The notes beneath the pieces are model-generated. The model was not told the DNA's origin. It worked only from the letters and a program-made list of their open reading frames with translations, and searched no databases. Source: Minisyncoccota bacterium (GTDB lineage: Bacteria; Patescibacteriota; Minisyncoccia; Phycocordibacterales; JACOZG01). From it: a DNA stretch of 46,594 bases. Location: NCBI GenBank assembly GCA_020057185.1, contig JAGVGK010000045.1:1-46594 (forward strand), read 5' to 3'. Below are positions 1,141 through 10,504 of this stretch, one piece after another (within the stretch, counting starts at the first letter, position 1; each line of letters starts with the position of its first letter). Both the position numbers and the translations under genes were made by a program.

Positions 1141-2493
1141 AGAAAAACCGGAACCAAACAAGAAACGATTCAGCCGATTGGTGTGATGAACGCCGATCGC
1201 CAAGAGGAAAGTGCGAGTAATGCTAATCGCCGTCAACATACTAATCAACACACCGATCGCGAGCGTGAGGGCGAAACCGCGCACCAAACTCGTCCCGAAC
1301 CAAAAGAGAATCAGCGCAGAGATGATGGTCGCGAGATTAGAATCACGAATCGACGCCCACGCCCGTGAGAAGCCGTGACTGATCGCGTCGTGCATATTCT
1401 CGGTGTGACGCATCTCTTCCTTCAGGCGCGCGAAAATAAGAATATTCGCGTCCACCGCCATCCCGACCGAAAGAATGAAACCGGCCATGCCGGCGACGGT
1501 GAGCGTCACCGGCAGGAGTTTGAAAATTGCCAGCATCAGCGACACATAAATCCCGAGTGAGAGGACCGCGAGCACGCCGTTGATGCGATACCAGAGAATC
1601 ATAAACACCGCGACGAGAAGCAGGCCGATAATCCCCGCTCGCACCCCGCGATCAAGTGCTTCTTGGCCAAGCGTCGCGCCGATCGTCTCCGTCGAAACTA
1701 ATTTAATCGGCACGGGTAAAGCCCCGAGATTGAGATTGCGAACCAAGGTGCGCGCTTCTTCAACAGTAAAGTCACCCGAGATTTCAGCTCGACCATCCTT
1801 AATCTCCTCGCGCACAACTGGCGCGGAGAGAAGTTCGCCATCAAGATAAATACCAATGCGCTTATCCACATTCTCTTTCGTTAATTTGGCAAAAATATCG
1901 CCCCCCGTCTGATCGAACTCCACCGAAATGGTCGGGTTAATTGACTGACTGCTGAATTGCACTTGCGCCCGCTTGAGATATCGGCCAGTGAGCTCACTCG
2001 GAATGAAATCGGGATTTTCCGCCAGCAACGGATTCGGCGTAATCGCTCCGCCCTTCGCCATTTCCACCCGCGCCGTTTCGATCGCCTTCTTTATCGCTTC
2101 CTTCTCCGGCCCGTCCGGCCGTTCAATTTTGAATTCGAGGACTGGGGTAACACCGATCACTTTAAGGGCCTCTTCTACATCTGTCACGCCAGGTAATTCG
2201 ATGATCAAGCGGTGTGCCCCACTCCCGCCAATTCCAACTTGCTCAACTTGGATCAAAGGTTCGCGAACACCGAAAGTGTTCACCCGCCTTTCAACCACTT
2301 CGCGAAGCGAGGCCATCGCTTCGCCGACATCAACATCGGTTGGCAAAGCCGAGGTGTCGGCTTGATAGACCAAGTGACTTCCCTCGCGCAGGTCCAGACC
2401 GAGTTTGAATGGTCGAAGAGAAGACAGATCAAAATAGGTCAGCCCCAAGCCGAAGAGAATTAAGATCACTGCAATTATCCGCCGACGGGTCAT
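1135..2493 (-). CDS. secD: protein translocase subunit SecD
   Basis: LGLDLREG, RRVNTFGVREP, GALPVP, GMAVDANILIF motifs. Confidence 0.97.
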   Translation of the reverse strand: MTRRRIIAVILILFGLGLTYFDLSSLRPFKLGLDLREGSHLVYQADTSALPTDVDVGEAMASLREVVERRVNTFGVREPLIQVEQVGIGGSGAHRLIIELPGVTDVEEALKVIGVTPVLEFKIERPDGPEKEAIKKAIETARVEMAKGGAITPNPLLAENPDFIPSELTGRYLKRAQVQFSSQSINPTISVEFDQTGGDIFAKLTKENVDKRIGIYLDGELLSAPVVREEIKDGRAEISGDFTVEEARTLVRNLNLGALPVPIKLVSTETIGATLGQEALDRGVRAGIIGLLLVAVFMILWYRINGVLAVLSLGIYVSLMLAIFKLLPVTLTVAGMAGFILSVGMAVDANILIFARLKEEMRHTENMHDAISHGFSRAWASIRDSNLATIISALILFWFGTSLVRGFALTLAIGVLISMLTAISITRTFLLAIGVHHTNRLNRFLFGSGFST

Positions 2494-2531
2494 ATAATGT
2501 TATGGACGCTATTATAACTACTCGTCATAAT

Positions 2532-3524
2532 TTAGCAAATAGCATTCAAAATCTGGATTTTTAATTTGTAAGTATTTCCGTGATTAATTAACCCTAAATA
2601 AGACGCAATAGTTTCTCTTCTTTTTTCTTGTCGTTCGATATTTTTAAACATCCTTCGTCTTGTCGCCCGTCTCAACACTCGATGATCAGGAAAATGCACC
2701 CAGCCAAGGAAATCAATTCCCGAAGCGAGGGTTTTGATTGAAATTTTGTCTGGGTGTAAAACGAGTTTAAGATTCTGTAACAAAAAATAATTTAGTTCGG
2801 ATAAAATAATTAGGAGCCAGTTTTTATCTTGGCTCATCACCACAAAATCATCGGCGTAGCGCAAATAATATCTGGCCTTGATTTTATTTTTTACAAACTG
2901 ATCTAGTTGATTAAGATAAACATTGGCAAAGAGTTGAGAAGTTAAATTACCCAGAGGCAGTCCAACCCCATTTTGAGTAGAATGAAAACTTCGAATAATT
3001 TTAGATAAAAGAAATAGGGTATCGGCATCAAAAACATAATCTTTAATGATTTCAACCAAGGTGTCGTGATCAATCGAAGCAAAAAATTTCCGGACATCAC
3101 ATTTAAGCACCCAAACAGTTTTGGTGTGATTCTTTGAAACTTGGTGCGCCAAAGATCGAAAGCGGTCGAGCGCTTTATGCGTCCCCTTACCAAACCGACA
3201 AGAATACGAATCATAAATGAAAGTTCGATCAAAGAATGGATAAAGAATTCGATAGAGGGCGCGGTGAAGAAGTCTATCTCTGACACTAGCTTTGTGGATA
3301 CTCCTCGGTTTCGGATCCGAAACACGGAAAGCTTCATAATTGGCGTGCTGATAGGTTTTTGATTTGAGATCATTGTGAAGAGACAACAAATTATCCATTA
3401 GATTTAGCTCAAACATTTGAACATCATGACGAGACCGCTTCCCGCTCGCAAATTCTCGCCACGCTTCGAGAAGATTTTCGAGCGATATGATACGATCATA
3501 GCCATGACTAAAAATTATTCTCAT
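2532..3524 (-). CDS. DGR reverse transcriptase (~330 aa; ATG at 3524 preferred over the ORF-track start at 3572)
   Basis: KPRSIH, RDRLLHRAL, LKCDVRKFFASIDH, GLPLGNLTSQ (DGR-type SQ), RYADDFV, GIDFLGW; no maturase or endonuclease extension. Confidence 0.95.
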   Translation of the reverse strand: MRIIFSHGYDRIISLENLLEAWREFASGKRSRHDVQMFELNLMDNLLSLHNDLKSKTYQHANYEAFRVSDPKPRSIHKASVRDRLLHRALYRILYPFFDRTFIYDSYSCRFGKGTHKALDRFRSLAHQVSKNHTKTVWVLKCDVRKFFASIDHDTLVEIIKDYVFDADTLFLLSKIIRSFHSTQNGVGLPLGNLTSQLFANVYLNQLDQFVKNKIKARYYLRYADDFVVMSQDKNWLLIILSELNYFLLQNLKLVLHPDKISIKTLASGIDFLGWVHFPDHRVLRRATRRRMFKNIERQEKRRETIASYLGLINHGNTYKLKIQILNAIC

Positions 3525-3918
3525 GATGGTAATGTTACCCCCCCCGACGCTTTTGCCACTGCTCCAACACACAAAAGGTGCTTACCTAATATGGTATGGC
3601 TACTACCAGACATTACCGAAAACTCATCGACACTCTCTGGGCCAAAGAATTGACACATTGTTTGTAGAAATTATGGAAGCCATCGCCGCGGCTGGATTTT
3701 TATCACGGGAAGAGAAACCCCCTTATGTCCGACTGGCTATTCGCAAAACGGACACGCTAAAAGTATTACTGATGGTGTTGTGGGAAACTAAATCTCTTGA
3801 TAGCAAAAAATATATCGCTATTTCTCTGAAAATAAACGGGGTCGGAAAAATGCTCGGTGGTTGGAACGGACAACTCTTAAAACAAAACTCCCTCGGCAAT
3901 AAACCGAAGGAGAAATGA
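3523..3918 (+). CDS. avd: Avd-like four-helix-bundle accessory variability determinant (start could be 3523, 3526 or 3532)
   Basis: ~130 aa basic helical protein with LPKTHRHSLGQRID and GKMLGGW motifs; lies between TR and RT. Confidence 0.88.
   Translation: MMVMLPPPTLLPLLQHTKGAYLIWYGYYQTLPKTHRHSLGQRIDTLFVEIMEAIAAAGFLSREEKPPYVRLAIRKTDTLKVLLMVLWETKSLDSKKYIAISLKINGVGKMLGGWNGQLLKQNSLGNKPKEK
3879..3912 (-). terminator. putative intrinsic terminator of the TR RNA, embedded antisense in the 3' end of avd
   Basis: Minus strand ctccttcgg-tttattg-ccgagggag followed by ttttgtttt. Confidence 0.6.
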
Positions 3919-3926
3919 AGCGAGTA

Positions 3927-4049
3927 GCGAGCACAGCCGCGGGGTTGTTGACGTTCCAGTCGTTGTCGAGCCAGTTGTAGCTCCAGTTCCACCTGTCGCC
4001 GTTCCAGCAGAGGTAACGGACGTAGAGGTCGTCATCCGAGTTGCGGTTG
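3927..4049 (-). repeat. DGR template repeat (TR)
   Basis: 123-bp ungapped match to 4417-4539 (offset 490); 17 mismatches, all A in TR on the minus strand; 9 AAC codons in the VR reading frame. Confidence 0.97.
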
Positions 4050-4299
4050 CGTACAAGGTATCATCTATGCCACTGCCCCCAGTTTACTAAAATAGCAAAC
4101 CAAAAGCTGTATCGTATTCGTGATCGATAATCACTTAATACCCTGCACCAAGTAGCTTCATTTTTTGAAGTGTCTGCATACACCACTCTACCCAAAACCA
4201 TAGTCGTGAGTATTCTCGATGTATGGATACTGGGTTCGGTAGCGAGCAACCTTGATCGCCCGCATATTCACCTACTACCGCAACTATATTATCACAAAC

Positions 4300-4348
4300 A
4301 AAAAGAACCCCGCATCTTATCTGTGGTTAAACAGAAAAAATGCGGGGT
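4300..4348 (-). terminator. intrinsic terminator of the DGR target gene
   Basis: 18-bp inverted repeat 4307-4324 / 4331-4348 (2 mismatches) followed by a T-rich run on the minus strand. Confidence 0.75.
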
Positions 4349-4376
4349 CCGAGGACTAAGATCAAAGTGTCCAAGT

Positions 4377-4982
4377 TCAGTTTAGGACACAGTGACCGAG
4401 TCCACAGTGCGAACTTGCGAGCACAGCCGCGGGGTAGCTGACGCCCCAGTCGACGCCGAGCCAGTCGTAGCGCCAGAACCACCCGTCGCCGTACCAGCAG
4501 AGGAAACGGACGTAGAGGTCGCCATCCGAGTCGCGGTAGATAGTCCCCCAGAAGTAAACACGCTGGGTTTTCCATTCTTCGGGGATAAGCTCGGGATGCT
4601 TGAGTAGGAAGTCCAGCACATTGGCGTTCAGAACCCTCTGGCTCTTGAGTACCTCGCGTAGAACATCCCCCTTCATCCATTTGCCATCCTTCTGGTCGTC
4701 AGCGATATAAAGGGTGACGAGCGACTCTGTCCATTTGATAGGAACACCCTTCTGGTGTTCCTCCACCTTCCAACCCTCGGGCAGGAAGGGATCGGCGCAG
4801 CAGTCAATCACATGGTTGGCTTCCTTCGCCTCCCATATTCCCTTGAGGACATTGCGAACCCAAGCGAGATTGTCTCCCGTCGAGAGTTGCTTGACCAGCG
4901 CGGCATCCCATTTGCCCACTCGATTCATCGCCATTTCAAGCTCGTGCGCTTGACCGACACCCATTGTGAAGTCGTTAGACAT
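4377..4982 (-). CDS. DGR target protein (201 aa) with C-terminal variable region, probable C-type-lectin-like fold
   Basis: AGAAAGGAG Shine-Dalgarno before ATG at 4982; C-terminal YRDSDGDLYVRFLCWYGDGWFWRYDWLGVDWGVSYPAAVLA is encoded by the VR; fold is inferred from DGR precedent. Confidence 0.92.
   Translation of the reverse strand: MSNDFTMGVGQAHELEMAMNRVGKWDAALVKQLSTGDNLAWVRNVLKGIWEAKEANHVIDCCADPFLPEGWKVEEHQKGVPIKWTESLVTLYIADDQKDGKWMKGDVLREVLKSQRVLNANVLDFLLKHPELIPEEWKTQRVYFWGTIYRDSDGDLYVRFLCWYGDGWFWRYDWLGVDWGVSYPAAVLASSHCGLGHCVLN
4417..4539 (-). repeat. DGR variable repeat (VR)
   Basis: Copy of TR with 9 A>G, 7 A>T and 1 A>C changes; GC-rich invariant 3' end, then divergent IMH-like tail. 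Confidence 0.97.
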
Positions 4983-5152
4983 AGCTAACTTCTCCTTTCT
5001 GTCGTGAGACTTGTTCACTCGAACTCGTCTCGTCCCTTGTTTACGGCTTAGCACAATGCTTCGCCACAGCAGAGAAAGGCCTATAATCTAAGCCGTTTTC
5101 TGCTATGGCGAAACGCAAGTTGGGTATCAAAGAACTTCTCTATTCTTTCCCT

Positions 5153-5181
5153 ATTATACACCCGTCACTAACACTTGTCAA
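5153..5181 (-). promoter_or_regulatory. consensus sigma70 promoter of the DGR target gene
   Basis: TTGACA (5181-5176), 17-bp spacer, TATAAT (5158-5153). Confidence 0.8.
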
Positions 5182-5251
5182 TAGTCCGTAATGGTTCATA
5201 ATAAGTCATACTAATTGTCTCCAAATGCAAACTGTGCTAGAGTGGTCGGAT

Positions 5252-5488
5252 ATGGAAATCATTAAAACGATTTTGCCGTGGGTGCAGATTATTGTCGCCA
5301 TTGCCGTGGTCGTCGCCATTCTGCTTCAACGCAATGACGCCGCTTTGGGCGGGGTCTTCGGTGGTAGTGGTAGTGTCGCTCATACGAAACGAGGTTTGGA
5401 GCGCGGTCTCTTCGTCACCACGGTGGTTTTGGCGATCCTTTTTGTGATCACCGCGATTCTCTCTTTTCTCCTTCAAGCCACCGTTTAG
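5252..5488 (+). CDS. secG: preprotein translocase subunit SecG
   Basis: Two TM segments flanking ILLQ...LGGVFGG...TKRGLE; ATG at 5252 preferred. Confidence 0.93.
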   Translation: MEIIKTILPWVQIIVAIAVVVAILLQRNDAALGGVFGGSGSVAHTKRGLERGLFVTTVVLAILFVITAILSFLLQATV

Positions 5489-7211: not shown

Positions 7212-8972
7212 ATGATGAGACCACCTCCTCGCCGACCACTACGACCGCGCGGCGACCAGTTAGAAAAGAAACCGATTCCCCCGCTCGCCCCGGGTGATAT
7301 TCGTATTATTCCGCTCGGCGGGGTCGAAGAGATCGGCAAAAATATGACCGCCATTGAAATGGACGGCGATATTATGGTGATTGACATCGGCTTCGCCTTC
7401 CCCGACGAGAATACGCCCGGAGTTGATTTCATCATTCCCGACACCACTTATCTCGAAGCGAACCGCGCGCGCGTCAAAGGGGTCGTTATCACGCACGGCC
7501 ACCTTGATCACACTGGCGGGATTTCTTATGTGATGCCGAAAATTGGCAATCCACCACTTTACACCAGGAACTTGACCGCCTTGATGATTAAAAAACGGCA
7601 AGAAGAATTTCCCCACCTCCCGCCCCTCGATATTATTGTCGTCGAAAAAGAGGAGCGAGTGAAGATTGGCAATTTCCGCGTCCACTTCTTCGGCGTCACG
7701 CACACCATTCCTGACTCGATGGGCGTAATTATTGAAACGCCTTACGGTCGGATTGTGAATCCGGGCGATTACAAACTCGACCTTGACACGGTAAACGGCA
7801 AACCGACGGAAGCGGAAGAAAAAGCTTATAGCATCTTCGATCAGGGCGAGACATTACTTTTGATGGCCGACTCGACCAACATTGAGAATCCGGGTTTCTC
7901 GCCACCCGAAAGTGAAGTGCACAAAAATCTTGAGACGATCATCAAGACCGTGAAGGGTCGGCTGATTATTGGAATGTTCGCCTCGCAATTTGAGCGAATT
8001 ATTAAAGTCCTAGAAATTGTGGAACGTTTAGGCCGGAAGATTGTCATCGAAGGTCGAAGTATGAAAACCAATGTGGAAGTCGCCCAGCTCGCGGGGATGT
8101 TAAAAATAAAAAAGGAAACGATTGTTCCCGTTCAAGAAGTAGATCAATATCCGCCAGAAAAGATCGTGGTCTTGGCGACCGGTGCGCAAGGCGAAGAATT
8201 CGCGGCGCTAATGCGGATGGCGACTAAGCAACATAAATATTTCCAATTTAAAAAAGGCGACACCGTCCTTCTCTCCTCTTCCATTATTCCGGGGAACGAA
8301 CGAACGGTGCAAAGATTGAAAGATAATATCGCGCGCCAAGGCGCGAAGATTGTTCACTACCGCACTTCCGAAGTTTATATTCACTCCTCCGGTCACGGTA
8401 ATCGCGGTGAGATCGAGTGGTTGCATCGGAAGATCAAACCGCATTTCTTCATTCCGATTCACGGTCATCATCAGAAGCTCCACGTCCACGCCGATCTGGC
8501 GCTAGAACTCGGCATGCCGGAAAAAAATATTGTCATTCCCGATAACGGCATGGTGATTGATATCACGGCGAAAGGAACGAAAATGCACGCGCTTAAAGAG
8601 ACCGTCTCAAGTCGGCTGGTGATGGTGGACGGTTCCGGCGCGGATAATGTAAAAGAAGTGGTGATTAAAGATCGGGTGATGCTCGCGCAAGAAGGCATCT
8701 TCGTTATCATTGCGATTATCAATCAGCAGACGGGTAAGGTGGTGAAGTCGCCCGACATCATCTCGCGCGGTTTCGTTTATCTGAAAGAATCTCAAGACTT
8801 ACTCCACTATGTTCGCCTAATGGTTAAACGGAAAATTGAAGACGCGACCTCGCGAATGAATCCGATCAACTTCGATTATGTGAAAAATATTCTCCGTGAA
8901 GAAATCGGCAAATATCTCTACCAAAAAACCCACTCCCGCCCGCTCGTCCTCCCCGTCTTGATTGAGGTGTAG
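7212..8972 (+). CDS. rnj: ribonuclease J
   Basis: PLGGVEEIGKNM, THGHLDHTGG metallo-beta-lactamase motif, HSSGH, PIHG. Confidence 0.95.
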   Translation: MMRPPPRRPLRPRGDQLEKKPIPPLAPGDIRIIPLGGVEEIGKNMTAIEMDGDIMVIDIGFAFPDENTPGVDFIIPDTTYLEANRARVKGVVITHGHLDHTGGISYVMPKIGNPPLYTRNLTALMIKKRQEEFPHLPPLDIIVVEKEERVKIGNFRVHFFGVTHTIPDSMGVIIETPYGRIVNPGDYKLDLDTVNGKPTEAEEKAYSIFDQGETLLLMADSTNIENPGFSPPESEVHKNLETIIKTVKGRLIIGMFASQFERIIKVLEIVERLGRKIVIEGRSMKTNVEVAQLAGMLKIKKETIVPVQEVDQYPPEKIVVLATGAQGEEFAALMRMATKQHKYFQFKKGDTVLLSSSIIPGNERTVQRLKDNIARQGAKIVHYRTSEVYIHSSGHGNRGEIEWLHRKIKPHFFIPIHGHHQKLHVHADLALELGMPEKNIVIPDNGMVIDITAKGTKMHALKETVSSRLVMVDGSGADNVKEVVIKDRVMLAQEGIFVIIAIINQQTGKVVKSPDIISRGFVYLKESQDLLHYVRLMVKRKIEDATSRMNPINFDYVKNILREEIGKYLYQKTHSRPLVLPVLIEV

Positions 8973-9012
8973 AGTGTATGCTATTTTAGAATTAGAAAGG
9001 AGATGATCAAAA

Positions 9013-9174
9013 ATGGTCACAAAGAAAAGTAAGAGCGATGAAAAATCAGTCCCCCTGGTTCCACCTCAAACGACTGACGAGCAAGCGCGCCATTGGAAAA
9101 TGCTAGATGACCAGGCAGCTAATAACGACGCTGAACGGGAAAGGATACGTGAACGAGAACTGGACAATGGTTAG
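9013..9174 (+). CDS. 53-aa charged orphan protein (absent from the ORF track)
   Basis: AGAAAGGAG at 8994-9002; ORF MVTKKSKSDEKSVPLVPPQTTDEQARHWKMLDDQAANNDAERERIRERELDNG; own terminator downstream. Confidence 0.6.
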   Translation: MVTKKSKSDEKSVPLVPPQTTDEQARHWKMLDDQAANNDAERERIRERELDNG

Positions 9175-9230
9175 TTGATGAACTGGTCAAGGCGCCGCCT
9201 TGACATGAGTGATGAGGAGGAGAAATTCGA

Positions 9231-9268
9231 GGGCGATCCGCCACGGTGGACCGCCCTTTATTTTTTTG
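9231..9268 (+). terminator. intrinsic terminator
   Basis: gggcgatccgcc-ac-ggtggaccgccc followed by tttattttttt. Confidence 0.7.
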
Positions 9269-9364
9269 TTTTTCAACTTATACCGTACTTACACGATCGG
9301 AGATGAATGGAATAATTTAGAATTTAATACAAAAATTATTTATTCAGGTATAATTGAGGGCACA

Positions 9365-10504
9365 ATGACCCGCCATATATTTTTCGCTGGGTTCTCACTT
9401 ACGCTTAGCGCCGCGCTCACTTATTATGTCAACTCCTCTTTCCTCGAGAGCCTCGTGGGAGAAAAGAAGATTGGTTTGATCTACGCGCTCTCGGCATTTA
9501 CCACCCTAATAATGATTCTCTTTGTCCCGTCGCTAGGACGAAGTTACGGCCTACTAAAACCAATCCGCTGGTTTGGACTCATCTTCTTCGGCAGTATTCT
9601 CACGCTAGCGGTTAGTCAGACGCCCATTGTGCAAATCCTTGCTTTCGTCGCCATCCACGCAATGGTAGTTTCTTTAGGCTTGTGGCTCGACCTTTATTTA
9701 GAAACCCTCTCTTCAGACAGCCGGACGGGGCGGATCCGAGGCGGGTATCTCACCGCCATCAATACTGCCGTGCTTATCTCACCCTACTTAAGTGGCACCA
9801 TCTTGGGACACTTCGGTAATTCTGGGGCTGATTATCGAATAATCTACGGGCTTTCTTGTCTAGCCACCCTGCCTTTCCTATATCAAATATTTTTTAAGCT
9901 CGCCCCTCAACCACTTCCTGCTACCATTTTTGGCTTACGGACTAAACTCCGCGACCGTAATCTGCGCAAAATTTTGGCCCTCGATTTCTTGCTCAATCTT
10001 TTCTACTTTTTTATGGTTATTTATCTCCCGCTTCACCTCATCCAAACGATCGGCTTCTCGTGGCAAAATGTTGGTTTAATTTTCACGATCATGCTTCTGC
10101 CATTTGTCTTAATTGAATATCCGCTTGGTTGGCTGGCGGATCAAAAATTTGGCGAGAAAGAAATTTTGAGCATCGGACTCGTTATCATTGCCATCTCCAC
10201 CATTCCCCTTGCTTTCTTAACTAGTCAAAGTTTGGCCGTCTGGGCACTCCTTCTCTTCGCCACCCGCGTTGGCGCCGCCACGATTGAATCAATGAAGGAA
10301 ACTTATTTATTTAAAAAAGTGACCGGTGGTGATATTGGCATCATCAGCTTGTCGCGACTAATGATTCCCTCGGCTTATCTCATCGGCTCCCTCGGGAGCA
10401 TCATCTTCCTGCTTTTCTTCCCCACCCCCTATCTCTTCCTCCTTCTTAGCGTCCTTCTTCTTCTCGGCCTCTCCTTCTCGCTCACGCTCGAAGATACGAG
10501 ATAA
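9365..10504 (+). CDS. MFS transporter (ATG at 9365 preferred)
   Basis: About 12 hydrophobic helices, GWLADQKFGEK MFS-type loop motif; TATAAT shortly upstream. Confidence 0.85.
   Translation: MTRHIFFAGFSLTLSAALTYYVNSSFLESLVGEKKIGLIYALSAFTTLIMILFVPSLGRSYGLLKPIRWFGLIFFGSILTLAVSQTPIVQILAFVAIHAMVVSLGLWLDLYLETLSSDSRTGRIRGGYLTAINTAVLISPYLSGTILGHFGNSGADYRIIYGLSCLATLPFLYQIFFKLAPQPLPATIFGLRTKLRDRNLRKILALDFLLNLFYFFMVIYLPLHLIQTIGFSWQNVGLIFTIMLLPFVLIEYPLGWLADQKFGEKEILSIGLVIIAISTIPLAFLTSQSLAVWALLLFATRVGAATIESMKETYLFKKVTGGDIGIISLSRLMIPSAYLIGSLGSIIFLLFFPTPYLFLLLSVLLLLGLSFSLTLEDTR

Follow-up and report, generated by a model that had tools for sequence, protein, structure and literature searches.

The question raised by this locus is where the template RNA of a DGR begins and ends, and from which side of the template it would be primed. 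We addressed it in the window, i.e. the whole 46,594-nt stretch of DNA analysed here, and by comparison with related units. We propose, with a probability of about 0.6, that the TR belongs to a self-contained RNA gene of ~400 nt in which a structured leader comes first, as in a circularly permuted form of the Bordetella phage DGR RNA. The genes and repeats of the locus are the following:

4377..4982, minus strand: DGR target gene, an ORF that holds the VR (4417-4537)
3927..4047, minus strand: template repeat (TR), 121 nt, aligned to the VR
3523..3918, plus strand: avd (Pfam bAvd, E 1.5e-9, 38.7 bits for a curated cut-off of 40 bits)
2532..3524, minus strand: DGR reverse transcriptase (RT) gene, ATG at 3524-3522 (Pfam RVT_1, E 8e-24)
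3545-3538 and 3537-3532, minus strand: poly-G tract and adjoining -10-like TAACAT, the hexamer ending 7 nt before the RT ATG

An adenine-specific TR/VR pair and an RT gene adjoining the TR identify the locus as a DGR. The TR (4047-3927) and the VR (4537-4417) are 87% identical and all of their mismatches (16/16 in the window) lie at TR adenines, as do 1785 of 1891 over 109 relatives having a VR. No Pfam family matched the target gene. The gene order, which is target, TR, antisense avd and RT, matches architecture B3, TR-(avd)-RT, and the reverse orientation of avd is also that of B3 in CPR bacteria. In the passages of Wu et al. 2018 concerned (PMC5758913), B3 represents 90% of the CPR collection and components on different strands are stated to need at least two transcription units; this account covers genes and repeats, and these passages mention no TR-RNA promoter, structured leader or terminator.

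The earlier note was written as if avd shared the strand of the TR. Both the ORF and the Pfam match place avd on the plus strand, where it converges with the TR RNA and diverges from the RT gene, and the terminator hairpin described below therefore falls inside the last codons of avd. Among relatives, avd is antisense to the TR in 114/150 units, and none of the 150 carries it on the strand of the TR. The poly-G tract and TAACAT upstream of the RT gene form a possible separate promoter with a slippery repeat; a -10-like hexamer ending 7 nt before the RT ATG was found in 26/73 loci.

The comparison rests on 150 scored units, 94 of which were gathered by a pattern fixing the leader motif and 56 by BLAST. 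The 3′ element was placed by a position-weight scan that assigned 150/160 units, and the unassigned ones that were inspected are truncated or degenerate. The alignments were built by MAFFT or a profile HMM, with no fitting to structure. Leader matches occur in 85/401 genomes of the same order; in a sample spanning the phylum, they occur in 18/401 genomes, of which 15 represent other classes. A second TR-RNA unit lies in the genome of the window (contig C15). An exact-pattern scan returned at least 118 contigs, with titles that, among the matches listed, are almost all those of Patescibacteria-group assemblies. A large part of the DGRs of ultra-small Patescibacteria belongs to this family of TR-RNA units.

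We first consider the 5′ end of the putative RNA gene, where two elements follow one another:

hairpin 4347-4308 and T-run 4307-4296, minus strand: end of the target-gene transcript, read from the letters
4286..4294, minus strand: extended -10, with TG at 4294-4293, one base and TAATAT at 4291-4286, from the letters and conservation

A sigma-70 extended -10 promoter consists of a TG, one base and a TAnnnT hexamer, and can dispense with a -35 element. Such an element had been described just past the target-gene terminator, and we recovered it within 1-2 nt of that placement, directly past the hairpin and T-run. Its hexamer keeps A2 and T6 in 154/158 units, the TG extension is present in 87/158 (8% in shuffles), and in 117/158 the distance from the end of the hexamer to model position 1 is 5-6 nt. 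No -35 signal was seen at the TR-RNA promoter in the 158 units compared, and a promoter scan of the window that required a -35 does not list the site at 4286-4294. By conservation, the site thus has the features of a predicted sigma-70 extended -10 promoter, and transcription would start ~7 nt past it, near 4279. As for the target gene, the loop of its hairpin exceeds the length limit of our terminator scan, and a G+C-rich hairpin followed by a T-run stands at the same place in the related units inspected.

Downstream of this promoter lies the leader, whose elements are all on the minus strand:

4051..4279: structured 5′ domain of the TR RNA (~230 nt), by covariation
4279-4232: helices P1 and P1a
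4225-4177: helices P2 and P2a
4163-4149: part of the conserved single strand of the leader
4154-4149: near-invariant linker UACUUG, after the proposed primer strand
4148-4137 with 4062-4051: helix P3 (12 bp), which encloses P3a (4134-4120) and P3b

The sole ORF of the leader (4279-4051) encodes 62 aa (4061-4249). We rejected a coding reading because the helices covary, because the loops carry insertions of many lengths and because this ORF has no Pfam match. RNAalifold applied to 30 sequences returned 55 pairs, 42 of them with compensatory changes. Across the 150 units, 95.7% of cells pair, compared with 82.0% in shuffles and 40-55% with slid partners; double changes were observed at 60/73 pairs, and none of 500 shuffles reached any of the five measures. 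As judged by covariation, the flanks of the TR in related DGRs are thus structurally conserved, a kind of check that the earlier note had named. Its non-coding leader of ~235 nt is borne out at ~230 nt. The leader hairpin that it drew holds in part: the arms 4263-4254 and 4251-4242 are present and covary, and the enclosing GGUAG/CUACC helix gives way to GGUG 4272-4269 with UACC 4241-4238, plus GG 4279-4278 with CC 4233-4232. We preferred the GGUG/UACC helix because its U-A becomes C-G in 43 units. A single-sequence fold in which the 5′ end pairs with the start of the TR was set aside because this pairing is not conserved.

P3 occupies a particular position, as it ends 0-6 nt before the TR and as TR/VR homology begins -3 to +7 nt from its end in 106/109 units. 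Double changes were found at 10 of its 12 pairs. A cmscan of positions 2400-5400 against Rfam 15 (E <=1) returned nothing over the leader or the TR flanks, including RT-10 and the other RT-associated motifs, described as structured RNAs adjoining reverse transcriptase genes (Weinberg et al. 2017, PMC5737381, in the part concerned). The sole match at this threshold was Pseudomon-1, at 21.9 bits for a threshold of 50, and it lies over the target-gene terminator.

At the other end of the putative RNA gene, we characterized the following element:

3879..3912, minus strand: hairpin 3912-3888 and U-tract 3887-3879, predicted intrinsic terminator and likely counterpart of the Avd stem-loop

An intrinsic terminator has a G+C-rich stem, a short loop and a U-tract directly after the stem. 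Here, the hairpin has 10 pairs (9-10 bp), six of them G-C, with a loop of 5, and the U-tract reads UUUUGUUUU (TTTTGTTTT). A 9-bp hairpin at 3888-3912 with a T-rich tail ~15 nt past the TR had already been pointed out, and it is indeed there: it starts 14 nt past the TR here and 14-20 nt past it in relatives. A terminator-like hairpin and U-tract pass strict criteria in 130/150 units (median -13.7 kcal/mol); stems are mostly of 9-10 bp, the next 9 nt hold 7-8 T in 123/145 scorable units, and the stem pairs covary over the 150 units. The element thus has the features of an intrinsic (Rho-independent) terminator, and termination at this site is predicted. In a single-sequence test, the region showed 3 terminator-like sites for 3.3 +/- 1.8 in shuffles. 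Taken from one sequence, such predicted promoter and terminator signals are unconvincing alone, and it is the comparison across relatives that settles the matter.

This hairpin could also be read as an Avd-binding stem-loop alone, in a transcript that runs through antisense avd into the RT gene and whose spacer functions would reside in antisense-avd RNA. Such a reading has its merits, as in the phage Avd binds the stem-loop directly 3′ of the TR and a spacer comes next, as the RT gene lies downstream on the strand of the TR in 93 units, and as intrinsic terminators seldom act completely; some transcripts may indeed read through into the RT gene. We consider it improbable as the main account, given the conservation of the U-tract and the behaviour of avd. 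Over the whole gene, the codon entropy of avd is 1.50 bits at third positions versus 0.90 and 0.61 at the first two, and it drops at third positions only under the U-tract and the flank motif, so that synonymous sites appear unconstrained along the gene body. The spacing between the U-tract and avd also varies through insertions. Moreover, 13 units retain the leader and the 3′ element with no avd within 450 nt downstream. In five such avd-less units, TR/VR substitutions fall at adenines in 9/9, 16/25, 23/24, 10/10 and 20/22 cases, and RT homologues are found elsewhere in 3/5 genomes with avd-less units. Finally, the partner of the TR-proximal helix, P3, is upstream of the TR and not in the would-be spacer. 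From the 13 avd-less units and the free third positions of avd, it follows that RNA-level constraint ends at the U-tract and, therefore, that only ~45 nt remain 3′ of the TR, in agreement with the length given in the earlier note. Altogether, the conserved -10, the covarying leader and the terminator found in ~150 relatives support its proposal of a free-standing TR RNA of ~400 nt.

For a duplex over the 3′ edge of the TR, two segments, both on the minus strand, emerged as candidates:

4155..4163: leader segment AAAUGAAGC, proposed primer strand, best 7-bp leader-by-flank window
3913..3921: 3′ flank motif GCUUCAUUU, complementary to 4163-4155; its antisense carries the TGA stop of avd

These motifs rank at the top of all 7-bp leader-by-flank windows, with 0.92 paired. 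The nearest other partner considered for the 3′ flank, AGGUGAA in the first block of the leader (0.911 vs 0.922), was set aside, its GGUG being already engaged in a covarying helix. TR/VR homology ends 7 nt before TCAUUU in 62/109 units and 2-11 nt before it in 97/109. The predicted initiation site lies 3-4 nt past the end of the homology, which speaks against the model. The leader probably supplies the primer strand, complementary to the flank motif.

Covariation of this 9-bp candidate duplex is modest, with compensatory changes at 3/9 pairs. Taken alone, the helix pairs in 95.1% of cases (91.9% in shuffles) and counts 27 double-change cells, for 7.2 in shuffles (0/500 reach this number). Pairs with double changes number 3 for 1.9 in shuffles (88/500 reach), and pair types 10 for 9.5 (254/500 reach). 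The last pair is A-U in 92 units, C-G in 8, U-A in 7 and U-G in 4; of the units whose leader strand ends in C, only 8/31 have a G opposite it in the flank. The U of AAAUGAAG is replaced by A or C in 9/63 units, and its changes are uncompensated in 7/56 BLAST-derived units (4 A-A, 3 C-A). The leader side of these counts is biased, since 94/150 units were gathered by the pattern fixing its motif. In addition, an exact complement of UGAAG lies upstream, such that a competing local hairpin is possible in 124/149 units, and the insertions of some units sit in its loop. Both the local hairpin and the long-range helix are possible pairings for UGAAG.

These figures bear on a second alternative, in which the TR RNA is self-contained and its leader merely docks RT-Avd or stabilises the RNA; priming would occur elsewhere, at nicked target DNA or at another RNA 3′ end, and the complementarity between AAAUGAAG and CUUCAUUU would be incidental or serve folding. 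The long-range helix does vary little, being made mostly of invariant bases, two of its five measures are not above shuffles, and the local hairpin offers another partner. Besides, the stop of avd falls on the TCA of the CUUCAUUU motif in 65/114 units, which could account for part of the conservation of the motif. Against this, the flank motif and the hairpin persist in units without avd, three pairs, among them the terminal one, show compensatory changes, and the helix is separated by 6 nt from P3 and by 3-4 nt from the TR end. We regard this alternative as unlikely, although it is the most probable of the three considered.

The same two pairings of UGAAG are mutually exclusive and could form a switch. 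Together with the multi-helix fold and its invariant single-stranded stretches, this might evoke a separate regulatory RNA, i.e. a riboswitch-like sensor or attenuator of TR or RT expression that acts outside the reverse-transcription RNP. It seems very improbable to us, as the leader was seen solely fused to TRs (a TR-like sequence and the flank motif come right after P3 in 150/150 scored units), as it accompanies the TR even where no gene follows and as it matches no Rfam family.

Returning to a self-contained and permuted TR RNA, the conserved layout suggests that priming takes place from the part of the RNA that precedes the template, not from a part that follows it. From this anatomy, we infer the transcript ends, the protein contacts and the site and chemistry of priming as follows. 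The transcript would comprise the folded leader of ~230 nt and the 121-nt TR, and would stop near 3880 at the hairpin and U-tract, within the 3′ end of the convergent avd gene. P3 would act as the stop duplex, with both strands upstream of the TR. The template:primer duplex would be formed by AAAUGAAG-N of the leader, 6 nt before P3, with N′-CUUCAUUU just 3′ of the TR, and cDNA would be primed from the 2′-OH at the 3′ end of the leader strand and then run back through the TR. The 3′ hairpin would serve both as terminator and as Avd-binding stem-loop.

We tentatively extend this model, at odds somewhat short of even, to a joint reading in which a Patescibacterial permuted DGR RNA combines a retron-like topology, a UGAAG/CUUCA priming switch, a terminator used as Avd handle, and an RT-Avd pair serving several TR RNA genes in trans. 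The primer nucleotide would be the base after UGAAG, ~115 nt upstream of the TR, and its 2′-OH would be offered once the leader strand pairs with CUUCAUUU. The identical CUUCA inside the leader would compete for UGAAG and act as a built-in switch gating priming. Within a genome, several free-standing TR RNA genes could share a single RT-Avd pair acting in trans.

The closest described system is the DGR RNA of phage BPP-1, which, according to the text of Handa et al. (bioRxiv 10.1101/2023.10.23.563531), consists of a 3′ segment of avd, the TR and a 140-nt spacer, Sp. Primer strand, stop strand, thumb ring and RT-binding stem-loop are all located in Sp, downstream of the TR, and Avd binds the stem-loop directly 3′ of the TR (bioRxiv 10.1101/2023.10.23.563531). 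As far as this text goes, both RNAs have a duplex at the 5′ edge of the TR and, directly 3′ of this repeat, a stem-loop of 9-11 bp (Avd binding being assigned here by analogy). A short duplex covers the 3′ edge of the TR in the phage and, as a candidate, here; its partner strand lies a few nt 5′ of a stop-duplex strand. In both, an RT of ~330 aa would work with Avd, here a Pfam match just below the curated cut-off, and both show adenine-specific TR/VR differences. They differ in that the RNA studied here appears to end ~45 nt past the TR, with the counterpart strands in the 230-nt upstream leader. A functional downstream spacer of ~140 nt finds no equivalent here, in view of the U-tract, the free antisense avd and the avd-less units. 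The partner strand of the 5′-edge duplex (P3) is upstream here and downstream of the TR in the phage; the linker joining the primer-like and stop-like elements counts 6 invariant nt here and 2 nt in the phage; and P1 and P2 have no counterpart named in the phage account. The order of elements corresponds to a permutation of that described for the phage RNA. The different priming geometry suggested in the earlier note fits these observations, as the TR-abutting helix and the flank-complementary segment are both in the leader.

The conservation claimed in distant taxa was based on folding, for each TR, 40 nt on its upstream side and 100 nt on its downstream side (Handa et al., bioRxiv 10.1101/2023.10.23.563531), and this survey, as described in its main text, could therefore not have seen the leader. 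The same text cites Table S3 and Fig. S18 for predicted elements, which may bear on our claim; our literature search, which covered the main text of Handa et al., found no published description of this leader. A free-standing TR transcript has a precedent in the cyanobacterial DGR TR sRNAs of Trichodesmium (265 nt) and Nodularia, reported from measurements as discrete and abundant (PMC6596454, in the part concerned). Compared by description, these belong to another phylum, and a conserved 5′ domain does not appear in this part of their account.

The proposed layout also recalls retrons by topological analogy. The msr-msd RNA is a single small RNA that carries a structured 5′ part and then the template, and priming occurs from a 2′-OH on the 5′ part, beside a duplex with the 3′ end of the template region. 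A structured 5′ part followed by the template is also what we observed here. Unlike in retrons, the RT is of the DGR type and comes with Avd and a TR/VR pair, no branching G was identified, and a product that homes into a gene, instead of persisting as msDNA, is expected. Given the TR/VR pair and Avd, we favour a DGR over a retron.

What is understood of DGR reverse transcription comes from one phage element, whose helper RNA lies entirely behind the template. This Patescibacterial family seems to place the helper RNA before the template; the whole would form a compact ~400-nt RNA gene whose ends are defined, and we provide a covariation-backed model of an RNA family absent from Rfam. If our reading is true, the RNP architecture would tolerate circular permutation, and the permuted form would connect the priming topologies of DGRs and retrons. 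Promoter, leader, template and terminator would then make up a small self-contained cassette, possibly re-usable with RT and Avd supplied in trans.

We read the template repeat (TR) RNA of this diversity-generating retroelement (DGR) as a self-contained, leader-first unit, in which promoter, leader, TR and a 3′ hairpin with its U-tract follow one another, and we give this reading a probability of about 85%. On rereading the minus strand, the coordinates and descriptions of elements in the earlier note proved right to within 1-2 nt. The locus comprises the following features (forward-strand coordinates):

4982-4377, minus: target gene of 201 codons, with the variable repeat (VR) at its 3′ end
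4347-4308, minus: hairpin after the target gene, followed by a T-run (4307-4296)
4294-4286, minus: extended -10 element, with TG (4294-4293), one base and TAATAT (4291-4286)
between the -10 element and the TR, minus: leader of ~230 nt without a credible ORF
4279-4232, minus: leader helix P1 with hairpin P1a
4225-4177, minus: leader helix P2 with P2a
between P2 and P3, minus: conserved, largely single-stranded stretch
4148-4137 with 4062-4051, minus: leader helix P3 (12 bp), enclosing two hairpins and two invariant single strands
4047-3927, minus: TR, compared with the VR at 4537-4417
3912-3888, minus: 3′ hairpin, 14 nt past the TR (10 pairs, 6 of them G-C; loop of 5)
3887-3879, minus: TTTTGTTTT (U-tract), directly after the 3′ hairpin
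3523-3918, plus: avd (Pfam bAvd, E 1.5e-9; 38.7 bits, slightly under the 40-bit cut-off)
3545-3538, minus: poly-G, followed by TAACAT (3537-3532)
3524-2532, minus: reverse transcriptase (RT) gene (RVT_1, E 8e-24), with its ATG at 3524-3522

In the window, TR and VR are 87% identical and all of their differences (16/16) fall at TR adenines. Since avd lies on the plus strand, it is convergent with the TR and divergent from the RT gene, and the 3′ hairpin sits in its last ten codons. This gene layout is that of the published architecture B3, TR-(avd)-RT, which makes up 90% of the CPR set of Wu et al. 2018 according to the available text of that paper (PMC5758913). The target gene has a perfect promoter (5153-5181, minus; TTGACA, 17 nt, TATAAT; 12/12) and a 5′ untranslated stretch of ~170 nt with a small hairpin (5094-5078); a second, similar promoter is found near position 120 (~110-140, minus), in the same flanking GGGTGTATAATAGGGA-like context.

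Taken alone, the site in the window is statistically unremarkable. By scan, the region has 3 terminator-like sites (3.3 ± 1.8 in shuffles), and the TAATAT -10 is absent from the list of a promoter scan that demands a -35.

The TR-RNA unit is conserved far outside this genome. First, the same 783-kb genome holds a second complete DGR (contig C15, ~7800-10330, minus; loci L003 and L004) with the same layout of homologous TR-RNA unit, antisense avd and RT; its leader is 69% identical to that of the window, its target gene and TR differ, and 18/19 of its TR/VR mismatches are at adenines. Second, a sample of 401 genomes of the same order contains 85 with BLAST matches to window 3860-4300, and in a phylum-wide sample, also of 401, the leader alone has matches in 18, of which 15 belong to other classes. 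The exact two-part leader pattern occurs in at least 118 contigs of a species-level genome collection; among the 80 matches listed, nearly all are Patescibacteria or Parcubacteria-group assemblies, and a few bear other automatic labels. In a viral collection the pattern was found in one contig only (locus L193, 22.9 kb), which is a copy carried by a phage or else a mis-binned contig of Patescibacteria. Altogether, 189 loci yielded 173 full-length leaders, 160 of them non-identical, and 150 of these 160 also carry the flank motif, a short conserved sequence just 3′ of the TR.

The earlier note had proposed that the RNA has its own promoter, and the relatives bear this out. In 158 units the upstream sequence is long enough for a hexamer search. 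The highest-scoring hexamer at the expected place has the conserved A2 and T6 in 154 of them, and on average 4.84 of its 6 positions agree with TATAAT (3.79 in shuffles). A TG stands before it in 87 units (8% in shuffles), and in 117 the leader model starts 5-6 nt after its end. In the -35 region, these 158 units do no better than shuffled sequence. At the sequence level, this pattern is the signature of an extended -10 promoter, and it places the predicted transcript start at the conserved GG (4279-4278) or 1-2 nt before.

The leader had also been described as structured, which agrees with covariation among the relatives. The RNAalifold consensus of 30 leaders, aligned structure-blind with MAFFT, has 55 pairs, 42 of them with compensatory changes. 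When this consensus and two 3′ helices are mapped onto an alignment of 150 whole units, 95.7% of cells pair (82.0% in shuffles, 40-55% with slid partners) and double changes occur at 60/73 pairs; none of the five pairing measures was reached by any of 500 shuffles. The hairpin singled out earlier is real and belongs to P1/P1a, and the helix that encloses it in the consensus fold is GGUG/UACC, not the proposed GGUAG/CUACC. The end of P3 directly adjoins the TR, and in 106 of the 109 units with a VR the start of TR/VR homology falls between -3 and +7 nt relative to where the leader model ends. No Rfam family matches the leader.

The proposed terminator past the TR recurs as well. After the flank motif, 130/150 units have a single hairpin abutting a T-rich run (-8 kcal/mol or better, at least 7 pairs, T-run at most 2 nt from the stem, with 6 or more T among the 9 nt that follow), and several of the 20 others fail because of the crude locating of the T-run. 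These hairpins have a median energy of -13.7 kcal/mol and, for the most part, stems of 9-10 bp and loops of 4-5 nt, and the stem covaries (helices 12-14 of the 150-unit alignment). The avd gene lies on the opposite strand in 114/150 units and on the same strand in none, 23 loci being too short to judge. Three findings assign the 3′ element to the TR RNA rather than to avd: 13 units keep it without avd within 450 nt; avd third codon positions are free along the whole gene (entropy of 0.90, 0.61 and 1.50 bits at positions 1, 2 and 3 among 85 genes) and constrained only in the codons under the U-tract and flank motif; and the codons across the stem, which encode the tail of the protein, show no conservation at any of their three positions. 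From this evidence, the minus strand is constrained at the nucleotide level as far as the U-tract and no further, in line with the short 3′ part reported earlier.

Units without avd or RT downstream (L016, L031, L042, L047, L059, L064 and seven others) keep promoter, leader, TR and terminator. Six of the 13 avd-less units also lack RT, and in the five of these in which TR and VR were compared, 9/9, 16/25, 23/24, 10/10 and 20/22 VR-TR substitutions are at adenines. In 3/5 genomes whose TR unit has neither avd nor RT beside it, RT homologues lie on other contigs or ~14 kb away, and none was found with this query in G034 and G293, two genomes that are 99-100% complete by marker genes; such units are either served in trans or relics.

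Read in the avd direction, the hairpin in plus-strand 3888-3927 has no T-run after it, so transcripts of avd may continue in antisense through the TR and leader; they could then collide with the convergent TR-RNA transcripts or pair with them into double-stranded RNA. At 3522-3525, the palindrome CATG contains the start codons of both avd and RT, overlapping on opposite strands, so that the upstream region of each gene lies inside the other. Upstream of the RT gene, 26/73 loci have a TAnnnT hexamer that ends 7 nt before the ATG, and in 28 loci the hexamer directly follows a poly-G tract. This is only suggestive of a separate RT promoter, whose mRNA would be leaderless or nearly so; the poly-G would then lie upstream of the -10-like hexamer, where a promoter has its spacer. 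Between the divergent starts of avd and RT, 89/93 loci have a simple-sequence repeat, which is poly-G of 7-13 in 80 loci and consists of (GT)n, (CT)n, (CTGG)n, (ACTG)n, (TTGG)n or 7-nt units in the other 9; the window's minus-strand poly-G (3538-3545) is a poly-C in avd codons 6-8, and 36 of the 89 loci have an in-frame avd start upstream of the repeat. The repeat resembles a slipped-strand on/off switch that acts on Avd, on the spacer of the RT promoter, or on both.

In the Bordetella phage RNA, as the available text of Handa et al. describes it (bioRxiv 10.1101/2023.10.23.563531), the TR is followed first by an Avd-binding stem-loop, next by a primer strand that pairs over the 3′ edge of the TR and whose last nucleotide, an adenosine, primes through its 2′-OH, two nt on by one strand of a stop duplex whose partner lies just upstream of the TR, and last by a small stem-loop with adenosines, the thumb ring and an RT-binding stem-loop. 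The patescibacterial unit runs P1, P2, AAAUGAAG-N, the 6-nt linker UACUUG (kept in 142/149 units), P3 5′ strand, P3a hairpin, A-rich invariant strand, P3b hairpin, second invariant strand, P3 3′ strand, TR, 3-4 nt, N′-CUUCAUUU, hairpin and U-tract. This would be the phage order opened between the Avd stem-loop and the primer strand, with the old ends rejoined; the partner in the TR-proximal duplex lies upstream in the patescibacterial units, whereas it lies downstream in the phage.

The leader motif is complementary to the flank over 9 bp, the best of all 7-bp leader-by-flank windows (0.922). Across the 150 units, 95.1% of cells in this helix pair (91.9% in shuffles, 40-59% with slid partners) and 27 are double-change cells versus 7.2 in shuffles (0/500); compensatory changes turn A-U into G-C in 2 units and G-C into A-U in 4, and the terminal pair is A-U in 92, C-G in 8, U-A in 7, U-G in 4 and G-U in 3. 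By analogy with the phage, the two strands would form the template:primer duplex, the terminal leader base (A in 105/150 units) would be the priming nucleotide, and the base 5′ of the flank strand would be the first template base, 3-4 nt past the point where TR/VR homology usually ends. There is hardly any variation at six of the nine pairs, and on two of the five measures the helix does not exceed shuffles (88/500 and 254/500 reach its values). The central U changes uncompensated in 7/56 BLAST-found units, the leader C at the last pair faces G in only 8/31 units, and the 94 pattern-found units were selected for the leader motif. Moreover, in 124/149 units the UGAAG of the leader motif has an upstream CUUCA as a possible local partner (12 units are without any complement), and local and long-range pairings may alternate as a possible switch. 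We consider the chances of this specific permuted-priming model to be about even.

In the available portions of the literature, DGR parts on different strands need separate transcripts (PMC5758913), discrete TR small RNAs are seen in cyanobacteria (PMC6596454), and a stem-loop just 3′ of the TR is predicted in numerous DGRs, those of CPR bacteria among them, on the basis of 40 nt upstream and 100 nt downstream of the TR (10.1101/2023.10.23.563531), windows that cannot contain this leader. In the texts returned by a full-text search, we found no description of the leader, of its promoter and terminator, or of the permuted arrangement.
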